Shown here in pieces: positions 8,245 through 24,081 of a DNA stretch of 64,000 nt (positions within the stretch are counted from its first letter, which is position 1; the number at the start of each line of letters is the position of its first letter). A program made the translations under genes and the position numbers. This stretch comes from an uncultured delta proteobacterium (GTDB lineage: Bacteria; Desulfobacterota; Binatia; JACPRU01): assembly GCA_963745025.1 (NCBI GenBank), contig CAVUWD010000016.1, positions 224,001-288,000 on the forward strand, given 5' to 3'. The notes under the pieces were generated by a model that saw nothing but the letters and a program-made list of their open reading frames with translations, did not search any database and had not been told where the DNA came from.

Positions 8245-8697
8245 TCAAGAGAACGAGGGCAGCACGGCGCGGCGCAACGCGTCGAGGTCGACCGGTTTCG
8301 AGAAGAATTGGAAGGCGCCGAGTCGGAGCGCGAAGTCTCGGCTCTCGGGATCGGTCTGTCCCGAAAGCACCACGACACGGATTCGTCTGGAGCGGTAGCG
8401 GAAATCGTCACGCAGCCGCCGCAGGACTTCCCAGCCGTTGACGCCGGGCATCTTCAGGTCGAGGACCAGCGCGACCACGTTTTCGCGATCGAGGATCGGC
8501 CAGATCTCGCCACCGTCGTCGACGGGAATGGCGACGTAACCCTCGTTCGTCAGCGCACGCTGCAGGACGAGTCGAATCGTTTCGTCGTCGTCGGCGATGA
8601 GCACGATGGGAGACTCGGGTTGGGGGGCGAGAGAGGGAGCAGGGGAGGAGAGGCCGCGTCGGCGGCTCCCCCTCGCTCTTCCCCTGCTCGGCAGCAT
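8245..8697 (-). CDS. Single-domain response regulator (receiver)
   Basis: VLIADDDETIR, LVLDLKMPGVNG, VVVLSG, FFSKP; start uncertain. Confidence 0.85.
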   Translation of the reverse strand: MLPSRGRARGSRRRGLSSPAPSLAPQPESPIVLIADDDETIRLVLQRALTNEGYVAIPVDDGGEIWPILDRENVVALVLDLKMPGVNGWEVLRRLRDDFRYRSRRIRVVVLSGQTDPESRDFALRLGAFQFFSKPVDLDALRRAVLPSFS

Positions 8698-8704
8698 GGA
8701 AACT

Positions 8705-10451
8705 TCAGGCGGCTGCCCGATTGACGTGGATACCGACCATATCGGGGTAGCCGTGAGCGCCCATCTCGGGACCGTCGAGGCCCTCGAGCTTCCGTCTCCT
8801 CGCTGACGCGGATCGGCGTGATCAGGTCGCTGAGCTTGAACCAGACGTAGGCCATGCAGAAGCCGAAGACGGCCACCACGGCGGCGTCGATCAGCTGCAT
8901 CGACGAGCTGCGACGCGTCGCCGTAGAGCAGGCCGCGCACGCCGTCCGAGCCGTACGCCTTCACCATCGCGTCGCGGACCACGCCGTTCCAGCCCGCGCC
9001 GTACTCTCCCGTTGGCGAAGATGCCGACGGAGATGACGCCCCAGAGGCCGTTGACGCCGTGAACGGAGATCGCGCCGACCGGGTCGTCGACGCCGCGATT
9101 GTCGCAGAAGAAGACGCTGAAGACCACGAGCACGCCGGCGATGACACCGATGATCGCCGCGCCCAGGGGTCGACGAACGCGCAGGGCGCGGTGATCGCCA
9201 CCAGGCCGGCCAGCATGCCGTTGCACATCATCGACGGGATCGGGCTTCATGCCCTTGCCAGCATCATGGTGAGCATCGCGGCCGATCGGCGCCGGTGACG
9301 CTGGCGAGCATCGTGTTGACGACCACGAAGCTGATCCGCAGGTCGGTGCCGGCGAGCGTCGAGCCCGGATTGAACCCGAACCAGCCGAAGGCCAGGATGA
9401 ACGTGCCGAGCGATCGACCATCGGCATGTGGTGGCCGGGCATGGCCTGCGGCTTGCCGTCGACGTACTTGCCGATGCGCGGGCCGATGACGATCGCGCCG
9501 GCCAGGCCGATGACGCCGCCCATCGCGTGCACGACGCCCGAGCCGGCGAAGTCGACCGCGCCGTGGCCGAGGCCCCAGTTGATGCCCGACCTGGGCCAGC
9601 CAGCCGCCGCCCCACACCCAGTTGGCGTAGAGGCAGTAGGGCAGCGCCACCCACAGGCCGTAGAGGCAGAAGTTCTTCCACGCCCAGCGCTCGGCCATCG
9701 CGCCGGTCGGAATCGTGGCGGTGGTGTCCATGAACACCATCATGAAGAAGAACAGCGCCATCACGCTGACGTCGTCACGACGCCGTTCAGGAAGAAGCCC
9801 TTCGTGCCCGATCAGGCCGTATGTGAACACGCCCGTGGCGTTGCCGGCGGCATCGGTGGCCGCGCCGAGTCCCCAGCCGCTGTTCAGCACCGACGTGCCC
9901 GGTCCGAGCGACGAGTACCAGCCCGGCGCCACCGGGCCGTTGAACCAGTTGCCCCAGCCGATCGCGAAGCCGTAGGCCCAGAACGCGAAGCAGCCGAGCG
10001 GGTAGATCATGAAGTTCATGCCGATCGTGTGCGCCGCGTTCTTCGCGCGGCAGAGCCCGGTCTCGACCATGCAGAACCCGGCCTGCATGAACATGACCAG
10101 GAAGCCCGGCGATCAGCACCCACACGATGTTGATCGAGAACAGGTTGTGGGCGATGCGATCGTAGAGGTCGGTCAGCGCCAGCGAGGATGGCACGTCGCC
10201 CTTGCCGTCGCCGGCCGGCGTCGCCCACACTCCCGCGGCCGCGCCGGTCGGATCGGGCCACAGGGGCTTCGCGGGATCGGGGCTCGCCGCCGTGAAGTAG
10301 GTCGGTAGCTGCGGACCAGCCGGAGCCGGCGCGGCCGCGGGTCCTGCTCGGGCGCCTTCTCCTCCGCCGCGAGCCTGCCGGGCGTGCCGGCGAGCAGCGC
10401 GGCGATCCCCAGGGCACCGAGGAATCCGAGCGTCGCTCTCGAATGCTTCAT
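8705..10451 (-). pseudogene. amt: Second ammonium transporter (divergent Amt subfamily) broken by many frameshifts; pseudogene or assembly error
   Basis: Amt motifs spread across all three minus frames: MFMQAGFCMVETG, IPTGAMAER, DFAGSGVVHAMGG, GWFGFNPGS, NGMLAGLVAITAPC, DDPVGAISVHG; ends ...GYPDMVGIHVNRAAA* at 8705. Confidence 0.9.
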
Positions 10452-12402: not shown

Positions 12403-12629
12403 CCCAAAAACGCGGAGGGTTGACCCGTGAGTCTGAGGATGGATCTGCCGAGGCCCCTCGACGGATTCACAGTTCGACCGAAGACGAGATGCGAGGGCGG
12501 GCGGGCTAATTTCGCAACTCGGTCGCCGTTCTGTTCATGAACCGGAGCTTCTTTCGCCGTCGCGGTCGGACGGTCACCGCACAGTTCCTGAAGCGGGTCG
12601 GTCTCGGCCCGGCCGCCCGGGGCGAGTGC

Positions 12630-12968
12630 GTGAAGAAGGTCGAAGCGATCATCCAGCCGTTCAAGCTGGACGAGGTCAAAGCCGCTCTGGCGGCCGAGGG
12701 CATCCGCGGCATCACGGTCATGGAGGTCCAGGGGTTCGGCCGCCAAAAGGGGCACCCGGATCTCTATCGAGGCGCCGAATACGCCATCGACTTGCGTAAC
12801 AAGATCAAGCTCGAAATTTTCGTTGCTGCGTCTCAAGTGGCCACCGTCTGCAAGACGATCGAGCAGAGCGCCAGGACCGGACGCATCGGCGACGGGAAAA
12901 TCTTCATCAGCCAGGTCGACGAGGTCGTGCGGATTCGCACCGGCGAGCGCGGAACCGAGGCACTGTGA
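12630..12968 (+). CDS. glnK: Second P-II nitrogen regulator
   Basis: [44 protein letters not shown]; GTG start gives the canonical 112 aa. Confidence 0.93.
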   Translation: MKKVEAIIQPFKLDEVKAALAAEGIRGITVMEVQGFGRQKGHPDLYRGAEYAIDLRNKIKLEIFVAASQVATVCKTIEQSARTGRIGDGKIFISQVDEVVRIRTGERGTEAL

Positions 12969-13111
12969 GAATCGCAATCGCGGCGGTGGCCACCGTGGTG
13001 GTGCTGCTCGTCGGCGTCGCCGGGGCGCCTCCGCTGCCCGTGGCTATCGGCGGCCTGGCGGCGTTCGGGTGGATCTGGTGGCGCTCGGGGCGCGGTGCCG
13101 CGAAGCTCTGA
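12965..13111 (+). CDS. 48-aa two-helix membrane protein (below ORF-track cutoff)
   Basis: GTGA overlap with P-II stop; translates MRIAIAAVATVVVLLVGVAGAPPLPVAIGGLAAFGWIWWRSGRGAAKL. Confidence 0.6.
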   Translation: MRIAIAAVATVVVLLVGVAGAPPLPVAIGGLAAFGWIWWRSGRGAAKL

Positions 13112-13135
13112 ACGGAGGCTCGCCCGGCCGGCGCC

Positions 13136-14506
13136 GTGTCAGGCGCCGCGCTTGGCCATCAGGATCCGGCGCCGCAGCGCGAGCACGGTCTCGTCTCGCC
13201 GGATCCAGCAGCGCGTCTCGACGTAGAGCACGCCGCGGCCCGGCCAGTGCTGGACGAGCTCGCCGACCGCGTAGTCTTCGAAGAATCGTCCCCGCCGCTG
13301 CATGCGATTCCCTGCTTGCGGTCTCTTCCGAAATGGGACAATTTCGACAAAGGCAAGTTCGGCATGTCGTTAGAGCTCCGAGAAGAAACGATCGACGCCG
13401 TCCTCCGCGAGGCACGGACGCTTGCGCCTGCAATCGCTCTACCGTCGCGCGACGACTCGGGACGCGAGCTTTCCGTCGCCGAGATGGTGGCGTTCTTCTA
13501 TTCCAAGCATGACGCCGAGAGCCTCCGGGCGGCGGCCGTCGCCCGACGCGGGCGGCGTGCCTTCGATCTCGAGACGTTCTCGCCCCTCTACCTGACCAAT
13601 ACCTGCGACTCCGAATGCAAGATGTGCGGAATGCGGAGGGACAATCGGGAGCTCGAGCGGCAGACCGCGAATCCCGCGGAGATCCAAGGACAGCTCGAGA
13701 TCCTTTGGGCACGAGGAGTCTTGGCGGTCGCGCTGCTCACCGGCGAGTACCAGCGCGATACCCGACAGTGGTCGATCGCGCTGACGCGCGACGCGCTCCG
13801 CCGGGCGCTCACGCTCGGCTTCCGCCACATATTGATCAACATCGGGTCGCTCGACGAGCGCGAGCTCGCGGATCTGCTTGCCGACGTCCCGCGCGGCGCC
13901 GACGGCCGCACGCTGCCCAAGGTGACTCTCTGCACCTTCCAGGAGACCTACGACCGCGAGACCTACCGCCGCTTCATGGGTGACAATCGCGAAAACCCGC
14001 GCGCCGACTTCGAGCGGCGTCTGGAAAACTTCGATCGCGCCGCGCGTGCCGGGATGCGTGTCGTCAATCCCGGCGTGCTGCTCGGTCTGTGTGCCGATCT
14101 CGCCTACGAGCTCACCGCGCTCGCGCTGCACGTTCGCCATCTACTCGCGCTCGGGCTCGAGGTCTACGTGTCGGTGCCGCGCCTGCGCCAAGCCTCCGGC
14201 GCCGAGAACTCGCGCGGTGTGTCCGACGACGAATTCGTCCGGCTCGTGGCGATACTCTCCTTGGGTGTTCCCGAGGCGAAGATCGTCATCACCACGCGGG
14301 AGTCGTCGGAAGTGCAGCGTCGGGTGTTGCCGATGGTGAGCGTGTTGTCGGCGGGCTCGTCGGCGGTCGCGCCCTATACCGAGACGGGAGCGCGCTTCCC
14401 GCTCGAAGCAAGCCAGTTCAAGGTCATCGACCAGCGACCGATCGAAACGATCCTCGCCGAGTACATCGCCGAGGGGGTTCGCTTCGAAAACTACCAAGCG
14501 CCGTAG
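13136..14506 (+). CDS. Radical SAM aromatic amino-acid lyase, NosL-like (tryptophan lyase / 3-methyl-2-indolic acid synthase family)
   Basis: TFSPLYLTNTCDSECKMCGMR, LLTGEY, NIGSL, TLCTFQETYDRETYRRFMG, VNPGVLLGL, SVPRLR, ITTRE, SAGSSAVAPY, SQF..D.R; start uncertain. Confidence 0.85.
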   Translation: MSGAALGHQDPAPQREHGLVSPDPAARLDVEHAAARPVLDELADRVVFEESSPPLHAIPCLRSLPKWDNFDKGKFGMSLELREETIDAVLREARTLAPAIALPSRDDSGRELSVAEMVAFFYSKHDAESLRAAAVARRGRRAFDLETFSPLYLTNTCDSECKMCGMRRDNRELERQTANPAEIQGQLEILWARGVLAVALLTGEYQRDTRQWSIALTRDALRRALTLGFRHILINIGSLDERELADLLADVPRGADGRTLPKVTLCTFQETYDRETYRRFMGDNRENPRADFERRLENFDRAARAGMRVVNPGVLLGLCADLAYELTALALHVRHLLALGLEVYVSVPRLRQASGAENSRGVSDDEFVRLVAILSLGVPEAKIVITTRESSEVQRRVLPMVSVLSAGSSAVAPYTETGARFPLEASQFKVIDQRPIETILAEYIAEGVRFENYQAP

Positions 14507-14551
14507 GCGCGGGTGGACGTCTCGGCCGGGCGGTCGTCCAGCGGATCGGGC

Positions 14552-15910
14552 TCAGGCCTTCATCAGCCGGCGGCGCCGGAGCCGGGTCCGCAGCACGCGG
14601 CCGAGCACGTTTAGGGCCGTCGCGGCATCCATCCTCGGCCACTCCAGGAGCGCCTCCATGACGCTCGCCGGCTTGCGTCCGGGCCTTCGCCAATCCGCGA
14701 TCTGCGTCGGCTTGTAGACCTTCGGCGTGCGCACGAGCGCGGTCGGATCCAGCAGGTCGCCGCGTCGCGCGGCCTCGGCCACCACCGGTACGCCGAGCTT
14801 CTCGCTCGCCGCGCGCACGGCCCGAACATCGATCGCGGGTCGAGCGCCGTCGACTTCCACGCAGAACACCACGTCCGCCGCGCGAATGACCGCGAAGAAG
14901 ACGCGCGAACCGTGCGCCTCCGCCAGATCGTAGCCGCAGTCGAGGATGTCGGCGGGGTAAACGCGCTTGCCGGCGAAATCGGCCACCTCGTCTTGCCGAC
15001 CGAGCAGGTCGATCGCCGGCTCGGGGCGGCCGCAGGCGCAGGGAATCACGCGGATGAAGTCGCGCGTCAGGTAGCGGACGAGCGGCATGGCCTTCGGGCC
15101 GAGGTGGGTGAGCGCGAACACGCCTGGCTCGCCGGGCTCGACCGGCTTCAGCGTTTCGGGATCGAGCACCTCCGCCACGAACAGGCGGGTGTCGAGGTGA
15201 AGCGTTCCCCGCTGGCAGGAGGCGCCGAGGAACAGCGTCTCGTTCGAGCCGTAGATCTCGCGCACCGTGACGCGCCAGTCGCGTTCGACCATGCGTCGCA
15301 TGGCGGCGGGCAGCGGCGCTCCGGCGAGCACCGCCATCTCGAGCGAGTCGAGCTCGCGAGCGGGATCGATGCCGAGCGTCAGCGCGAGCTCCCGGAGCAA
15401 GAACATTTCCAGCGGCAGACAAGCGATGATCTGCGGCCGCAGCGTGCGCAGAAAGTCGAGAGCGCGGGGGAAGGGGACGTCCCAGGAGAGGTTTCCGCAC
15501 GGAATGTGGCAGCCCCCTTGGAGCTGGAGTGCCGACTCGATGCAGAAGGAGATCGGCGCGAAGGAGGGGAAGCGATCGAGGAAGATCTTTCCCGGCGTCC
15601 ACTCGGGAAACCATCGCGCCACCGACTGCCCCATGATCGCGAATTCTTCCTTTCGGTACCAGCAGGCGATGGGCTGTCCCGTCGTTCCCGTCGATTCGTG
15701 ATAGTGCCAGAGTTCTTCGCGCGGCACCGCGAGCATGCCGAACGGCGTCGCCTCGCGGAGATGGTCTTTGCTGGTGACCGGCAAGCGATCGAGGTCGGCG
15801 AGCGAGCGCGCCTCGCTCTTCTTCAAATGCTCGGCGTAGAAGGGTGCGCGGCGCGCAAGCGACACGGTCTCGCGAAGGAGCGCCTCGGCGTCGGGATGGG
15901 TCGCGTACAC
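14552..15910 (-). CDS. Phenylacetate-CoA ligase (PaaK)/IaaL/F390-synthetase-family adenylate-forming enzyme
   Basis: LPVTSKDHLR, HESTGTTGQP P-loop, LAGAP, IYGSNET, MPLVRYLTRD, CACGR, LGRQDE. Confidence 0.88.
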   Translation of the reverse strand: MYATHPDAEALLRETVSLARRAPFYAEHLKKSEARSLADLDRLPVTSKDHLREATPFGMLAVPREELWHYHESTGTTGQPIACWYRKEEFAIMGQSVARWFPEWTPGKIFLDRFPSFAPISFCIESALQLQGGCHIPCGNLSWDVPFPRALDFLRTLRPQIIACLPLEMFLLRELALTLGIDPARELDSLEMAVLAGAPLPAAMRRMVERDWRVTVREIYGSNETLFLGASCQRGTLHLDTRLFVAEVLDPETLKPVEPGEPGVFALTHLGPKAMPLVRYLTRDFIRVIPCACGRPEPAIDLLGRQDEVADFAGKRVYPADILDCGYDLAEAHGSRVFFAVIRAADVVFCVEVDGARPAIDVRAVRAASEKLGVPVVAEAARRGDLLDPTALVRTPKVYKPTQIADWRRPGRKPASVMEALLEWPRMDAATALNVLGRVLRTRLRRRRLMKA

Positions 15911-15915
15911 GGGCG

Positions 15916-17613
15916 TCAGAACCGCGCCCAGAGCGGCGTCGGGTGAGGCGGTAACGTGTCGACGACGACGTCGAACTGGGCGAGCAGCGTTCCCTCCGCC
16001 TGCCGCAGAGCCGCGAGCGAGACGTTGTAGTCGATCAGCGCCTGGATCTCGGCGGCGCGCGCCGCGGTGACTCGCTGCTGGAAGTCCAGAATGTCCTTGG
16101 TCGTCGCCAGGCCGACGTCGTAGCGCTTCTTCTGCTGCTCGAGGTTTTCCTCGGCGAGCTCACGTGCGAGGCGCGTGACGGTGATGCGTTTCGAGTTCGA
16201 GCGCACGTTGCCGATGGCTTTCCGCGCCTCGAGCGTGACGTTGGCGAGGAGCTGGCGATAGGAGAGCTCACCACGACGGAGGTCGATCTGGCTCTGGACG
16301 TATTCCGCCTCGGCGGTCGTGTTGCCGAGCGGGACCGTGAAGGACAGGCCTCCCGAATAGGAATTGAAGTCGTCGCTCGCCAGCCGATCGAGGCTCTTGC
16401 CGTAATCCCCGGTGAACGGCGTGACCACCGTCTGGCCGGTCTGCGGATCGGTCTGCGGAACGCCGCGTCCCGACAGACCGTTGAGCCCGTAGCTGGCGTT
16501 CAGGTTCAGGCCGGGTAAGAGATTGTTGCGGTTGATCTTGGCGAGAATCTTGCGGTTCTCGATGTCGTAGCGCGCCTGCAGCACCTCCGGACGTCGCTCG
16601 ACCGCGTCGACCAGGATCTCCTGCTCGTCTACGGTGACGTCGCGAACCTCTGGGCTGTCGATCGGCTCGATCGGTCGGGGCACGAAGGCACCCTCGGGGT
16701 TGCGCTGGAGGAGCAGGCGAAGGCTGTCGGACGCGATGCTCACCGCGTTCTCGGCACTGATCACTCGCGCCTCGCGGCTCGCCGCGTCCGCTTCCGCCTC
16801 CTTGACGGCGACCGGCGGAAGAGTGCCCGCGCGGACACGGGCCTCGTTCTCCCGGAGGAGCGTCTGCGCGAGCCGCAGGCCATCCTGCTCCGCCTTGAGG
16901 TTTTCCCTTGCCTGCACGACGCCCCAGTAGGCCTCGACGACCTGCCGCACGAGCGCCACGGCCCGAGACAGGTACTGGTAGTAGGCGACGCTCGAGTTCG
17001 CCTCCGCGGAGCGCACGAGTAGGATCGTCAGGTCGATGCCGAAGTTCTTGAGCAGCGGCTGCGACACGCTGAACAAGACAGTCGGAAGGTACTGGGGGCG
17101 CAGGCCGTAAAACCGCGAGTTGGTATCCGTCTCCGTGGAGCTGCCGGCGATGGTGAACGTCGCTCCCGAGCGCAGCAGCTTTTGCAGCGACAGTGCGTAG
17201 ACGTAGTCTTTCTCGCGGAGCACTTGCGCGCCCTGCAGAACGGAGCTCGCAGGAACGACCGAGCGCTCGACGGTTCCGCTCGCCTGGAACGTCGGGTCGA
17301 AAATGCCGTTGGCGCGATCGACGTCGGCGCGCGCGAACTCGGGTCCGAGGCGCTCGACGGCGATTCCCGGATTGTTCTGGAGCGCAGCCGCAACTGCCTC
17401 GCGCAACGACAGGCGCTCGAGCGTATCGTCGCGGCTCTCGAGGTAGGCTCGTGGCTCGGGCTTCGGCTGGATGCTTTCGCTCGTCCACTGCTCGCGGAGC
17501 TGCTTCGGGAAGGAGGGAATGGGGAAGTCGTCGCTGGCCGATCCGGCGAAGACTGCGGTCGGAACGATCGAGCAGACGAGCAGCGCGGCGCCGATGACGA
17601 CGAATCGGTTCAT
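15916..17613 (-). CDS. TolC-family outer-membrane efflux protein
   Basis: Signal peptide, LSLREAVAAALQNNP, SQPLLKNFG, VVEAYW, RYDVGLATTKDILD; ATG 17613 with GAGG RBS. Confidence 0.9.
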   Translation of the reverse strand: MNRFVVIGAALLVCSIVPTAVFAGSASDDFPIPSFPKQLREQWTSESIQPKPEPRAYLESRDDTLERLSLREAVAAALQNNPGIAVERLGPEFARADVDRANGIFDPTFQASGTVERSVVPASSVLQGAQVLREKDYVYALSLQKLLRSGATFTIAGSSTETDTNSRFYGLRPQYLPTVLFSVSQPLLKNFGIDLTILLVRSAEANSSVAYYQYLSRAVALVRQVVEAYWGVVQARENLKAEQDGLRLAQTLLRENEARVRAGTLPPVAVKEAEADAASREARVISAENAVSIASDSLRLLLQRNPEGAFVPRPIEPIDSPEVRDVTVDEQEILVDAVERRPEVLQARYDIENRKILAKINRNNLLPGLNLNASYGLNGLSGRGVPQTDPQTGQTVVTPFTGDYGKSLDRLASDDFNSYSGGLSFTVPLGNTTAEAEYVQSQIDLRRGELSYRQLLANVTLEARKAIGNVRSNSKRITVTRLARELAEENLEQQKKRYDVGLATTKDILDFQQRVTAARAAEIQALIDYNVSLAALRQAEGTLLAQFDVVVDTLPPHPTPLWARF

Positions 17614-17731
17614 GGATCCTCGCCGCTTATGCGCCACCTCCAGGGAAGTCAAACCAGAGGGTTGCAATTGTCTTCGCATGGCCTTTTCCTTATGTTTGGG
17701 GCGGTGACGAGGACCAGCGCCGCGAGGGGCC

Positions 17732-17974
17732 GCAGCGTACGCTACCAACGGGCTCTTCTTCGGTGAGTTCCTGGCAGGCCGAGAATTGCTGCTCGAGTAC
17801 ATCGAGCGGATCGAGATCATCCGCGGACCGGTATCGGCGCTCTATGCTCAGGCCGTCGCAGATCGGCGTGCGGGCCTCGATCGTCACCGCGTCGCCGCCA
17901 ACCGACGGGTCGAAGATCAGTTGGGTGTGAATTTCGTACCCGCCTTCCGTCACGACGTGGAGATCCGCGAGTGA
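17732..17974 (+). pseudogene. Remnant of TonB-dependent receptor plug domain
   Basis: Reads AAYATNGLFFGEFLAGRELLLEYIERIEIIRGPVSALY, then loses similarity. Confidence 0.6.
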
Positions 17975-19958: not shown

Positions 19959-21113
19959 ATGATGATCAAGAGATACCTGCTGACCCCAGGGCCGACGCCA
20001 GTACCTCCGGAGGTGGCGCTGAAGATGGCCGAGCCGATCATCCACCATCGCACTCCGGAGTTCAGCAAGATTTTCTCCGAGGTTCGCGGCGGCCTGCAGA
20101 GGCTCTTCCAGACGGCAGGGGACGTGCTCGTGCTGGCCAGCTCCGGCACCGGCGCGATGGAAGCATCGGTGGTGAACCTGCTCTCGGCGGGGGACCGCGT
20201 CATCGTCGTGAACGGCGGTAAGTTCGGCGAGCGCTGGACGAAGATCTGCCAGAGCTATGGCGTCGTGGTCGAGGAACTCAAGGTCGAATGGGGCGAGGCC
20301 GTGGCGGTCGACCGCGTGCGCGCGGCGCTCGAGCAGTTTCCCGACGCCAAGGCGCTGCTCGTCCAGGCGAGCGAGACCTCGACGACCGCCGTTCATCCGG
20401 TCGAGGAGATCGCCGCGCTCACCAGAACCCGCGAGACGCTGCTCATCGTCGACGGCATCACCGCGGTCGGCGTGTACGACGTGCCGATGGATCGCTCCGG
20501 AATCGACGTGCTCGTGACGGGATCGCAAAAAGCGCTAATGCTGCCCCCCGGCCTCGCTTTCGTGGCGCTCAGCGAGCGCGCCTGGAAGCGCGCGGACAAG
20601 CCGCATCTGCCGAGCTTCTACTTCGACCTGAATCGCGAACGGAAGAACCAGGGGGACAATACGACGGCGTACACGCCGGCCGTGTCGCTCGTCTTCGGAC
20701 TCCATGCGGTGCTCGAGATGCTCGAGCAGGAAGGTTACGAGAACGTGTTTCGCCGCCACGCGCGGCTCGCCGCCGCGACGCGTGCCGCCGGAGCCGCGCT
20801 CGGCTTGAAGCCGCTCGCGCCGCTCGCGCCGAGCCCGGCGGCCACCGGTCTCTACATGCCGGCCGGCCTCGACAGCGGCAAGCTCACCAAGTACCTGCGC
20901 GACAAGGTGGGCGTCAGCTTCGCCGGCGGGCAGGATCATCTGAAGGGCAAGATCGTGCGCATCGCGCACATCGGCTACTTCGGCGATTTCGACATCGTGA
21001 CGGCGATCGCGGCGCTGGAGATGGCGCTCACCAAGTTCGGCGCACGCGTCGATTTCGGCAGCGGAGTCGCGGCTGCGGAGCGCGTGCTCGTGGAAGGCTT
21101 GCCGTCCGTGTGA
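19959..21113 (+). CDS. Class V aminotransferase (alanine-glyoxylate/serine-pyruvate family; probable phosphoserine aminotransferase role)
   Basis: LLTPGPTPVP, SSGTGAME, SETST, VDGIT, TGSQKALMLPPG; directly upstream of serA. Confidence 0.92.
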   Translation: MMIKRYLLTPGPTPVPPEVALKMAEPIIHHRTPEFSKIFSEVRGGLQRLFQTAGDVLVLASSGTGAMEASVVNLLSAGDRVIVVNGGKFGERWTKICQSYGVVVEELKVEWGEAVAVDRVRAALEQFPDAKALLVQASETSTTAVHPVEEIAALTRTRETLLIVDGITAVGVYDVPMDRSGIDVLVTGSQKALMLPPGLAFVALSERAWKRADKPHLPSFYFDLNRERKNQGDNTTAYTPAVSLVFGLHAVLEMLEQEGYENVFRRHARLAAATRAAGAALGLKPLAPLAPSPAATGLYMPAGLDSGKLTKYLRDKVGVSFAGGQDHLKGKIVRIAHIGYFGDFDIVTAIAALEMALTKFGARVDFGSGVAAAERVLVEGLPSV

Positions 21114-22728: not shown

Positions 22729-24081
22729 ATGCGCCGCGATCCGAAGACCCTCGTCGTGATCGGTGCCCAGTGGGGCGACGAGGGGAAGGGGAAGATCGTC
22801 GACCTGCTGGCGGAGCGATCCGACATCATCGTTCGCTTTCAGGGCGGGAACAACGCGGGCCACACGCTCGTGGTCGGCGGCGAGAAGACGGTCCTCCACC
22901 TCGTGCCGTCCGGAGTGCTGCACCACGGGAAGACGTGTGTGATCGCCAACGGAGTCGTGGTGGATCCGCTGGTGCTGCTCGACGAGATAGACGCGTTGCG
23001 CCGCCGGGGGTTCCTGGCGCGCGACGAGGATCTGCGCATCTCGGAGCAGGTGCATTTGATTCTGCCGTACCACAAGGCGATCGACCTCGCGCGCGAGCGC
23101 CTTCGCGGGCAGGGCAGGATCGGTACGACGGGGCGGGGGATCGGTCCAGCCTACGAGGACAAGATGGCGCGGATCGGGATCCGCATCGTGGATTTGCTCG
23201 AGGAGGAGACCTTTCGCGAGAAGCTCTCGGCGAACCTCGAGGAGAAGAACGCATACCTCCGTTCCATTCTCGGGGAAGACGCCTTCGCTTTCGACGGGAT
23301 CTTCGAGTCGTATCGCACGATCGGGGAACGCCTACGGCCTCACGTCGCCGACACGTCTCGCTTACTCGATCGGGAGATCCGCAGCGGCAAGCGTGTGCTC
23401 TTCGAGGGAGCGCAGGGCACCATGCTCGACGTCGATCATGGGACCTACCCGTTCGTGACGTCGTCCAATTGCGTCTCGGGCGCCGTGTTTGCCGGAAGCG
23501 GCATCGCCCCGGGATTGCTCGGTCGCTCGCTCGGCATCACCAAAGCATACACGACGCGCGTGGGAAGCGGGCCGTTCCCGACCGAGCTCGACGGGGCGAT
23601 CGGCGACAGGCTTCGCCGAGACGGCGACGAGTACGGGGCGACGACCGGCCGGGCCCGCCGTTGCGGCTGGTTCGATGCGGTCGCCGTGCGCCACGCCGTG
23701 CGGCTCTCCGGTCTCGACGGCCTCGCCATCACCAAGCTCGACGTGCTCGCCGGTCTCGATCCCTTGCGCATCTGCGTTGCATACCGCTCGGGCGAGTCGA
23801 CGATCGACCACGTACCGGCGGGCGCCCGTGCGCTCGCGCGGGCCGAGCCCGTCTACGAGGACTGGCCGGGCTTCGGCAGCTTATCGAGCGTCGGCAGCCT
23901 CGAGGAACTGCCGGCGAACGCGCGCCGCTATCTCGATCGGATCACGGAGCTGACCGGGGCTCCCGTTTGCATCGTCTCGGTCGGCGCGCGGCGCGAAGAC
24001 ACGATCGTGATCGACGACCCGTTCGCATGGGCGGCGGGCGCCAAACCCGGCTGCGAGCCCAACAACCTTCCATTGACTTAG
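22729..24081 (+). CDS. purA: Adenylosuccinate synthetase
   Basis: GAQWGDEGKGKIVD, GGNNAGHT, FEGAQG, GTYPFVTSS, YTTRVGSGPFPTE. Confidence 0.98.
   Translation: MRRDPKTLVVIGAQWGDEGKGKIVDLLAERSDIIVRFQGGNNAGHTLVVGGEKTVLHLVPSGVLHHGKTCVIANGVVVDPLVLLDEIDALRRRGFLARDEDLRISEQVHLILPYHKAIDLARERLRGQGRIGTTGRGIGPAYEDKMARIGIRIVDLLEEETFREKLSANLEEKNAYLRSILGEDAFAFDGIFESYRTIGERLRPHVADTSRLLDREIRSGKRVLFEGAQGTMLDVDHGTYPFVTSSNCVSGAVFAGSGIAPGLLGRSLGITKAYTTRVGSGPFPTELDGAIGDRLRRDGDEYGATTGRARRCGWFDAVAVRHAVRLSGLDGLAITKLDVLAGLDPLRICVAYRSGESTIDHVPAGARALARAEPVYEDWPGFGSLSSVGSLEELPANARRYLDRITELTGAPVCIVSVGARREDTIVIDDPFAWAAGAKPGCEPNNLPLT

Follow-up and report, generated by a model that had tools for sequence, protein, structure and literature searches.

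The window analysed here, 64,000 nucleotides from an uncultured Binatia bacterium (contig C16:224001-288000 of the source genome, G000), carries an open frame at 13136..14506 (+) whose product is almost certainly a radical S-adenosylmethionine (SAM) lyase of the NosL lineage, judged by family scores, structure matches and trees. The lyase is very likely coupled in function to a PaaK-like ligase encoded beside it, with which it forms a conserved two-gene module. NosL performs the radical rearrangement of tryptophan to MIA (3-methyl-2-indolic acid) (PMC5585349), and sequence comparison makes us lean towards a composite reading in which a tryptophan lyase of this lineage and its ligase module feed an envelope-lipid or aryl-polyene-like pathway. 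The features of the module are as follows.

13364..14506 (+): NosL-like radical SAM aromatic amino-acid lyase, most likely coding sequence; 380 amino acids (aa) from an ATG start, assigned from homologue lengths, upstream stops and family scores
13136..13363 (+): upstream part of the open frame, probably an untranslated leader; homologues do not match it, and loci L034, L035, L037 and L038 have stops there
13604..13627 (+): CxxxCxxC radical SAM [4Fe-4S] motif CDSECKMC; open reading frame (ORF) residues C157, C161 and C164, equivalent to NosL C95, C99 and C102; unchanged in all 12 homologues aligned
14552..15910 (-): 452 aa, PaaK-like adenylate-forming ligase for aryl acids; 45 bp separate it from the convergent lyase gene; assigned from Pfam, NCBIfam and PDB matches

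Among all PDB chains the best match to the lyase is NosL (6htk/4r33, E 8.4e-75, 255 bits), and the runners-up are ThiH (7pd1, E 5.5e-29) and HydG (E 1e-26 to 5e-24). The NCBIfam models give 273.5 bits for TIGR04158 (3-methyl-2-indolic acid synthase, cut-off 400), 157.7 bits for ThiH TIGR02351 (cut-off 380) and 111 bits for HydG TIGR03955 (cut-off 312), with the match of the 380-aa lyase to the HydG model ending at model position 372 of 470. Both Pfam domains, Radical_SAM (31.0 bits) and BATS (31.5 bits), score over cut-off. This architecture and the CDSECKMC motif are common to the lyase and NosL/NocL (Streptomyces actuosus nosiheptide; PDB 4R33, 6HTK), which also have an adenylating enzyme encoded adjacent. 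ThiH and HydG belong to the same superfamily and fold family, but differ from the lyase in scores, clade, tyrosine markers and thiG/thiE linkage.

A search of a 5.8-billion-protein collection with the lyase ORF gave 884 proteins at E<=1e-10 among the 8000 candidates scored, and the 380-aa protein found 829 at E<=0.001 and 51 at E<=1e-30 among 1.84 billion 50%-identity representatives. A FastTree tree of 158 rows took in the lyase ORFs of the fetched loci, where these reach 330 aa, and the 320-520 aa members of 150 listed representatives, leaving out shorter fragments and longer fusions, and an IQ-TREE tree (LG+C20+F+G4), rooted on ThiH/HydG, from 65 of these rows picked by hand. Rows were labelled by NCBIfam: P0131 (573.5 bits) and L104 (650.5 bits) pass TIGR04158 as true NosL, P0132, P0136, P0138, P0139, P0140 and P0143 are sub-cut-off NosL kin (222-354 bits), and P0180 (538.9 bits) and P0242 (521.4 bits) are the HydG and ThiH references. 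In both trees the ThiH/HydG side and the NosL superclade each have support 100. The superclade consists of a 13-row group of NosL and kin (support 97-99) and a Binatia/Myxococcota clade (97 in FastTree; SH-like approximate likelihood ratio test, SH-aLRT, 94 in IQ-TREE), and the window lyase lies in the latter, sister to the group with the cut-off-passing NosL and its sub-cut-off kin. This clade has three well-supported subclades, A with 6 rows including the window, and B and C, which have 27 and 34 rows in the large tree. Of the 78 loci fetched, which are species representatives, about 70 fall within the clade.

The original prediction, which placed the protein with NosL rather than with ThiH or HydG, is borne out at the level of lineage by these matches, scores and trees, the lyase falling in the NosL superclade and not with ThiH, and the NosL strings it cited are visible in the alignment to PDB NosL. 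Its description of the match as almost word for word was overstated, since the TIGR04158 score is below the cut-off, identity to the L104 NosL is 45% (over 317 aa), and the clade is a distinct sister. Many homologues among those listed are named '2-iminoacetate synthase' by Joint Genome Institute (JGI) pipelines, and a search of the ESM Atlas gave only unnamed Myxococcota clusters and one '2-iminoacetate synthase' cluster. On the scores and trees above, the frequent '2-iminoacetate synthase ThiH' annotation of genes in this clade is to be corrected. One source names near-identical clade homologues both '2-iminoacetate synthase (ThiH)' and '3-methyl-2-indolic acid synthase', and both names exceed what the family cut-offs support.

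The open frame runs for 456 codons from its first GTG with coding-type composition (0.81 GC at third codon positions), and its translation contains all the motifs quoted for it (TFSPLYLTNTCDSECKMCGMR, LLTGEY, NIGS, TLCTFQETYDRETYRRFMG, ADFERR, VNPGVLLGL, SVPR, TTRE, SAGSSAVAPY and SQF). An extra N-terminal extension of roughly 60-80 aa had also been claimed, but most of the 120 homologues listed are 377-395 aa long and cover 83% of the long ORF, and the ATG at 13364 (ORF residue 77) precedes a conserved M-x-(F/L)-E-L start. Of five same-family homologues, four have stop codons in the matching frame upstream; in the fifth, L036, this frame is open, yet unconserved. Because of these lengths and stops the extension is rejected as an ORF-calling artefact, and the gene is most likely the 380-aa frame listed above.

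The ligase has the P-loop STGTTGQP and scores over cut-off for Pfam AMP-binding (41.3 bits). Its NCBIfam matches are all below cut-off: BagE/FevW 155.2 bits (cut-off 800), PaaK TIGR02155 138.6 bits (cut-off 646.3), the DVU_1553 family 98.9 bits and FlxY 85.9 bits. In the PDB it matches phenylacetate-CoA ligase (6e-45), AjiA1 (2e-42) and a NatL2-type PaaK-like ligase (5e-42). NatL2, AjiA1, ClxA and BagE/FevW are its closest characterised relatives, though all scores are far below the family cut-offs, and the nearest characterised relatives all activate aromatic acids. PMC12519233 describes NatL2, AjiA1 and ClxA as enzymes that activate aromatic acids by adenylation and join them, without coenzyme A (CoA), to phenol or amine acceptors. 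The pathways of NatL2, AjiA1, ClxA and BagE (benzoxazoles, bagremycin) have no radical SAM lyase, unlike the pair in the window.

Among 41 genomes (G000 and 40 relatives), the lyase is present in 11 (G000-G006, G015, G023, G031 and G035), and an orthologue of the ligase (E<=1e-50) occurs in exactly the same 11 and in 0 of the 30 others; these genomes are kin and not independent, which means that the counts overstate the support and the co-occurrence should be read as a pattern and not as a statistic. Each of the two genes is present twice in G031. In G004, a 65%-complete genome, the lyase and the ligase are both split by a stop or frameshift (C11:27450-30179, locus L031), which is either joint decay or assembly error. 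A wider set of 78 loci was taken from one-genome-per-species contigs, several being the same places as the loci of the 41 genomes, and in 74 of them a match to the lyase spans half of a query or more. The ligase is present in 44 of these 74 loci and within 300 bp of the lyase in 37; some of the remaining loci lack the upstream flank. Where at least 5 kb is available on both sides (37 loci), 24 hold a PaaK-like ligase and 30 hold either it or a 4-coumarate-CoA ligase (4CL)-like ligase. In subclade C the ligase precedes the lyase on one strand with gaps of typically 13-17 bp, and in the window's subclade A the two genes are convergent. It is from this phyletic and positional pattern that the functional coupling is drawn. 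The lyase had been taken for a stand-alone gene, a view that gives way to a conserved ligase partner and, in many relatives, to large lipid or aryl-polyene-like clusters around the pair. In the same-genus relative G001 (L024:5927-9322, -) a gene of 1131 aa lies between the ligase and the lyase, which are 3.6 kb apart, and it has zinc-ribbon, adenylate/guanylate cyclase, AAA ATPase and TPR domains.

The ligase is predicted to adenylate the acid produced by the lyase, and the activated acid would then be passed to a carrier protein, to CoA, or directly to a hydroxyl or amine acceptor. Such a step would parallel NosI/NosJ in nosiheptide, ApeH in aryl polyenes and the NatL2/BagE-type ester formers. 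In nosiheptide biosynthesis NosI adenylates MIA and loads it onto the carrier NosJ (PMC5585349). The logic of NosI-NosJ and of ApeH is the same, in that a dedicated enzyme makes the aromatic acid and an adenylate-forming neighbour activates it and hands it on; the window differs in that its ligase is PaaK-like and no carrier gene is adjacent. The true NosL locus L104 encodes a HemN-like radical SAM enzyme, NosL, an alpha/beta hydrolase, an AMP-ligase and a cytochrome P450, and, unlike in L104, no NosN-, NosK- or NosI-like gene was seen beside the window's lyase. A second NosL locus, L105, has an AMP-ligase, a tryptophan halogenase and a condensation-adenylation-thiolation (C-A-T) module of a non-ribosomal peptide synthetase (NRPS). 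The window ligase was rejected as an orthologue of the NosI-like ligases of L104 and L105 (BLASTP E>0.7). As there is no BLASTP similarity between the ligases, the pairing of a lyase with an acid-activating enzyme is recurrent but analogous, not inherited. The L105 locus (L105:9800-17531, an Amycolatopsis sp. metagenome-assembled genome) has a lyase that groups with P0131 at support 100, and the halogenase among its neighbours scores 532.6 bits; no obvious thiopeptide set was seen there. Judged by these neighbours, MIA-type units may also enter non-ribosomal peptides.

The residues of the NosL tryptophan pocket that had been expected to be retained (P88, Y90, C200, F202, R323 and S340) are all present in the window lyase. 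Counted along the alignment to PDB NosL, they correspond to P150, Y152, C266, F268, R388 and S405 of the ORF. Together with the cluster cysteines they are invariant in 12 aligned clade members, except that S340 is Thr in three (family f9). R323 is a strictly conserved Arg facing the substrate amino nitrogen (PMC9046217), the NosL variants R323K and Y90A divert the product to indole-3-pyruvate, and S340A admits N1-methyl-tryptophan, altering recognition of the indole nitrogen (PMC9850924). The primary markers of the tyrosine lyases are R306 and a one-residue insertion in beta8, and E158 is given as the only notable difference near C-alpha (PMC9046217). The window protein agrees with NosL where the tyrosine lyases have R306 and E158, both proteins showing Gln and Asn there (by alignment, with the 7pd1 chain numbering offset by +10). 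There are 91 columns with at least 90% conservation among 63 clade members and no variation in three NosL proteins that pass the cut-off, and at 81 of them the two sets have the same residue. Since the Arg, Tyr and Ser that hold the amino and carboxyl groups and the indole N-H in NosL are retained, the lyase is predicted to bind free L-tryptophan, which is probably its substrate. MIA is a plausible product, but on present comparisons it stays just short of an even chance. Skatole is disfavoured, though only indirectly, because the ligase partner implies a product that is a carboxylic acid.

Several points tell against this assignment of the chemistry. The lyase is below the NosL equivalog cut-off and its clade is separate from every characterised NosL. 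The other 10 of the 91 jointly conserved columns differ, including a Thr for Val201 between the pocket residues C200 and F202. The partner ligase is no orthologue of NosI, and we know of no PaaK-like enzyme that takes indole-2-carboxylate. The authors of a comparison of ThiH with NosL could not pinpoint the features that set C-alpha-C versus C-alpha-C-beta scission (PMC9046217), and for that reason the product is not readable from the sequence. The lineage and the ligase coupling may be as proposed and the chemistry another. The substrate would be a halogenated tryptophan, Tyr, Phe, His or a tryptophan derivative, or a different acid would be made, of the indole-3-pyruvate or aryl-acetate/aryl-glyoxylate type, and then be activated by the PaaK-like ligase. 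The low TIGR04158 score, the separate clade and the clade-specific substitutions, one of them beside the pocket, would fit such a change, as would the halogenase-like genes in 13 of the 74 loci and the classical preference of PaaK-like enzymes for arylacetates and benzoates. Point mutants of NosL already switch to indole-3-pyruvate (PMC9850924), but R323, Y90 and S340, where mutations switch the product, are all retained here, the tyrosine-lyase markers are not present, and 81 of the 91 columns agree with NosL. This is the strongest of the alternatives, and still an unlikely one.

The reading that we prefer, a tryptophan-derived acid entering an envelope-lipid or pigment pathway, comes from the gene context in relatives. 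The ORFs of the 78 loci and of the window were clustered into families and representatives were scanned; the counts below are by tblastn within the 74 lyase loci.

PF03706 flippase-like membrane protein: 42 loci, adjacent in 34, usually just downstream of the lyase
B12-binding radical SAM enzyme: 35 loci, often in 2-3 copies; with 386 bits the representative is over the TIGR04072 cut-off of 360
LpxL-like/lysophospholipid acyltransferase: 19 loci
FabF-like ketosynthase: 18 loci, often in pairs
4CL-like ligase: 16 loci, a sub-threshold match
FG-GAP/ASPIC protein: 14 loci
XrtA-type polysaccharide deacetylase: 13 loci, adjacent in 10
CmlS-like halogenase-type flavoprotein: 13 loci
Methyltransferase: 11 loci
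Aromatic amino-acid ammonia-lyase, BagA/FlxA-like below cut-off (tyrosine ammonia-lyase (TAL)-like): 10 loci
4HBT thioesterase: 8 loci

LolA-like, MMPL, PlsC-like and Orn/DAP-decarboxylase-like proteins are also encoded in these loci, and small ORFs resembling acyl carrier proteins (ACPs) occur in six. Of the 37 well-flanked loci, 26 have at least one lipid-cluster family. In the gene table of the Escherichia coli aryl polyene (APE) cluster (PMC8253772) a methyltransferase, ketosynthases, a lysophospholipid acyltransferase and ACPs are listed, along with an acyl-ACP synthetase that adenylates 4-hydroxybenzoate, a thioesterase, a LolA-like protein and an RND (resistance-nodulation-division) transporter. 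The neighbours in the relatives match much of that table item for item, in a comparison made outside the ketoreductase and dehydratase genes. The extra element in the relatives' loci is the 'ladderane-type' B12 radical SAM enzyme, for which a function is described as not yet established (PMC13459092). TAL-like, 4CL-like and halogenase-like genes near the lyase also recall flexirubin-type clusters, the FlxA, FlxY and 4CL matches being sub-threshold. The genomic context of NosL is that of a peptide made by the ribosome and modified after translation (RiPP), whereas the context of the window clade in relatives is lipid or aryl-polyene-like.

In the proposed pathway, the lyase would convert tryptophan to an indole carboxylic acid, the ligase would activate it, and the acid would feed an envelope-lipid or aryl-polyene-like pathway. 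More weakly, the activated acid may end up in an envelope lipid or an aryl-polyene-like pigment, as its starter or its head-group. Assembly of this product would fall to a type II ketosynthase/ACP system together with the 'ladderane-type' B12 radical SAM enzymes. LpxL/PlsC-like acyltransferases would attach it, the PF03706 flippase-like protein would flip it, and LolA-like and MMPL proteins, here perhaps also a TolC-like one, would export it. Genes for such a pathway surround the pair in many relatives and lie on contigs C19 and C13 in G000. C19:250-265k encodes three glycosyltransferases, an AMP-ligase, an ACP, two ketosynthases, LolA, MMPL, a deacetylase, a PF03706 protein and YceI, and C13:411.8-414.9k encodes an LpxL-like protein, a B12 radical SAM enzyme 65% identical to the cluster representative and a PlsC-like protein. 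A radical SAM enzyme passing TIGR04072 (394.9 bits) lies at C19:175k, a halogenase-like gene at C19:141k, and FG-GAP/ASPIC at C10:273.6-275.9k. Among the 41 genomes, a TIGR04072-like enzyme (E<=1e-60) is found in 13. Nine of these belong to the 11 lyase-bearing genomes and four to the 30 that lack the lyase.

The link to lipid synthesis is not uniform. The presence of the TIGR04072-like enzyme in four lyase-less relatives and its not being found in the lyase-bearing G001 (82% complete) and G004 loosen the association. The 11 well-flanked loci without lipid-cluster families comprise the window's subclade, five Polyangiaceae-type loci and two actinobacterial ones. Within subclade B, the loci of Polyangiaceae type stand in another context. 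Their neighbours encode an AAT/TPR protein, methyltransferases and an ICMT-like methyltransferase, a 4HBT thioesterase, an amidohydrolase and a PLP (pyridoxal phosphate) enzyme of the Ala_racemase_N type. In the window, no ACP, ketosynthase or flippase gene lies near the lyase. Judged from gene context, entry of the acid into an APE/'ladderane'-type envelope-lipid pathway is an even call. A doubtful, more specific version is that the pair and the PF03706 protein install a tryptophan-derived indole-carboxylate on an outer-membrane lipid, making an 'indolyl' counterpart of the aryl polyenes. Many loci have a NodB-type deacetylase and a flippase-like protein adjacent, and the ligase has relatives that form esters and amides; from these two points one can also speculate that the ligase acylates a deacetylated sugar or other lipid head-group directly and does not prime a ketosynthase.

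The kind of enzyme is a known one, the NosL lineage, and the genomic context is new and widespread. Lyases of the sister clade share the active-site residues of NosL and are common in uncultured Binatia and Myxococcota, often within aryl-polyene/'ladderane'-type lipid clusters. Literature searches found no treatment of NosL-like enzymes in non-thiopeptide contexts, and NosL chemistry was met there only in actinobacterial thiopeptide pathways. Full-text searches, in which papers were judged by title and the start of the abstract and subscription-only papers lay outside, also found no NosL-type lyase linked to an APE, ladderane-type or Gram-negative lipid cluster. The earlier expectation that the gene feeds an undescribed pathway is probably right. 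The pair may offer an entry point to an orphan envelope-lipid or pigment pathway of abundant soil and sediment bacteria, by way of two soluble enzymes and a predicted acid intermediate of known mass. If the 'indolyl' lipid version is true, there would be a previously unseen class of tryptophan-derived envelope lipids or pigments, widespread in Binatia and Myxococcota, and 'ladderane-type' B12 radical SAM lipid clusters outside anammox bacteria would have their first assignable input.

In the window itself, the pair is flanked by two genes.

15916..17820 (-): TolC-type outer-membrane efflux protein (OEP), 634 aa, a possible export component; Pfam OEP 155.7 bits; shares its strand with the ligase and lies 5 bp upstream of it
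12537..12968 (+): P-II nitrogen regulator, upstream of the lyase on the same strand; Pfam P-II 96.4 bits; probably unrelated

An OEP of this type stands beside the ligase in three of six same-family relatives' loci (L024, L026 and L027; not L025, L028 or L031). Such a position would suit a pair that makes a small diffusible tryptophan-derived metabolite, such as a signal, an antibiotic or a siderophore-like acid conjugate, exported through the TolC-type protein, with the lipid clusters mere frequent neighbours. No lipid-cluster gene is within reach of the pair in the window's subclade, and the relatives NatL2, AjiA1 and BagE make small aromatic esters or amides. In subclade C, however, the pair is operon-like with the flippase-like protein, which is adjacent in 34 of the 74 loci, and lies inside clusters with ketosynthase, ACP, LolA and MMPL genes, and G000 keeps all those lipid partners on other contigs. 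We regard the diffusible metabolite as improbable next to the envelope-lipid pathway.

A role in thiopeptide synthesis was also considered, and the gene lies outside any such cluster, as had been predicted. No YcaO was found in the whole G000 genome (92.65% complete), in a search whose control was positive in 5 of 14 genomes; a search for Lant_dehydr_N also gave no match in G000, but its control was silent, hence this result is uninformative. The neighbours are P-II, the PaaK-like ligase and the OEP, and the host is, as had been supposed, a diderm uncultured bacterium. The window has no thiG, again as stated before, and ThiG is on another contig.

G000 does have ThiG-ThiE, with no ThiH over cut-off (0 of 41 genomes) and no ThiO over cut-off (best 134 bits against 250.8), so it could be asked whether the lyase replaces ThiH, cleaving C-alpha-C-beta to give dehydroglycine for ThiG-dependent thiazole synthesis, as the JGI names for its homologues would have it. 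This is very improbable. The 78 loci, 1.14 Mb in all, contain no homologue of ThiG or ThiE, there is no thiamin pyrophosphate (TPP) riboswitch upstream of the lyase, and the ligase partner would have no role in a thiazole pathway. The lyase-bearing genomes outside the window's family (G015, G023, G031 and G035) all have ThiO over cut-off, and many relatives do without ThiH, ThiO and a NosL-like gene alike. The idea was rejected on the lack of thiamin-gene linkage and the co-occurrence with ThiO.

That the lyase is a decaying, non-functional remnant of a transferred actinobacterial NosL gene can be given next to no credence: both genes are interrupted in G004 and one metagenome contig appears to skip the lyase, but the G004 frameshifts may be errors of a 65%-complete assembly, the frame in the window is intact with all catalytic motifs and 71-80% identity across the family, and the Binatia/Myxococcota clade is deep and well populated with conserved synteny.

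The P-II gene belongs to an ammonium-transporter/porin neighbourhood upstream and is seen only in the window's own family of loci. In that neighbourhood, two abutting ORFs at 8245-10094 (-) are pieces of one ammonium transporter (Amt), the second also having a response-regulator receiver domain. In a same-genus relative the Amt matches are contiguous, and in the window an Amt-receiver fusion gene seems to have been frameshifted or mis-assembled. Beyond the OEP lie a histidine kinase and then SerC/SerA-like genes and PurA. The only riboswitch match in the window, a ZMP/ZTP riboswitch (RF01750; 19790-19894, +; 47.1 bits, gathering score 39), lies just upstream of a class-V aminotransferase gene (19959-21113). 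After that gene come one of phosphoglycerate-dehydrogenase-like type and purA (22729-24081).

Upstream of the lyase, Rfam gave no match at E<=1 in 12900-13450, and a promoter and terminator scan of 12900-14700 found no promoter-like sites and two overlapping terminator-like sites inside the coding region that were no better than shuffles. The 45-bp convergent gap between the lyase and the ligase has no clear terminator. Part of the stretch was found in 20 sequencing runs, four of them labelled as RNA (two marked probably DNA) and with a share of only 0.05-0.06. Contigs from the RNA libraries cover 14098-14315 (X20, 218 nt, 1 mismatch) and 15292-15472 (X17, 181 nt), although such contigs cannot show transcription, starts or ends. 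In the bog metagenome DNA run X1, compared at 90% likeness, a contig of depth 5.4 passes from 13195 to 14537 by way of 16 other letters; it skips the whole lyase gene, is not among the supported joints, and could come from a related strain without the gene or be a chimera. Another X1 contig (1591 nt, 13946-15536, 9 mismatches) spans the junction of lyase and ligase as in the window.

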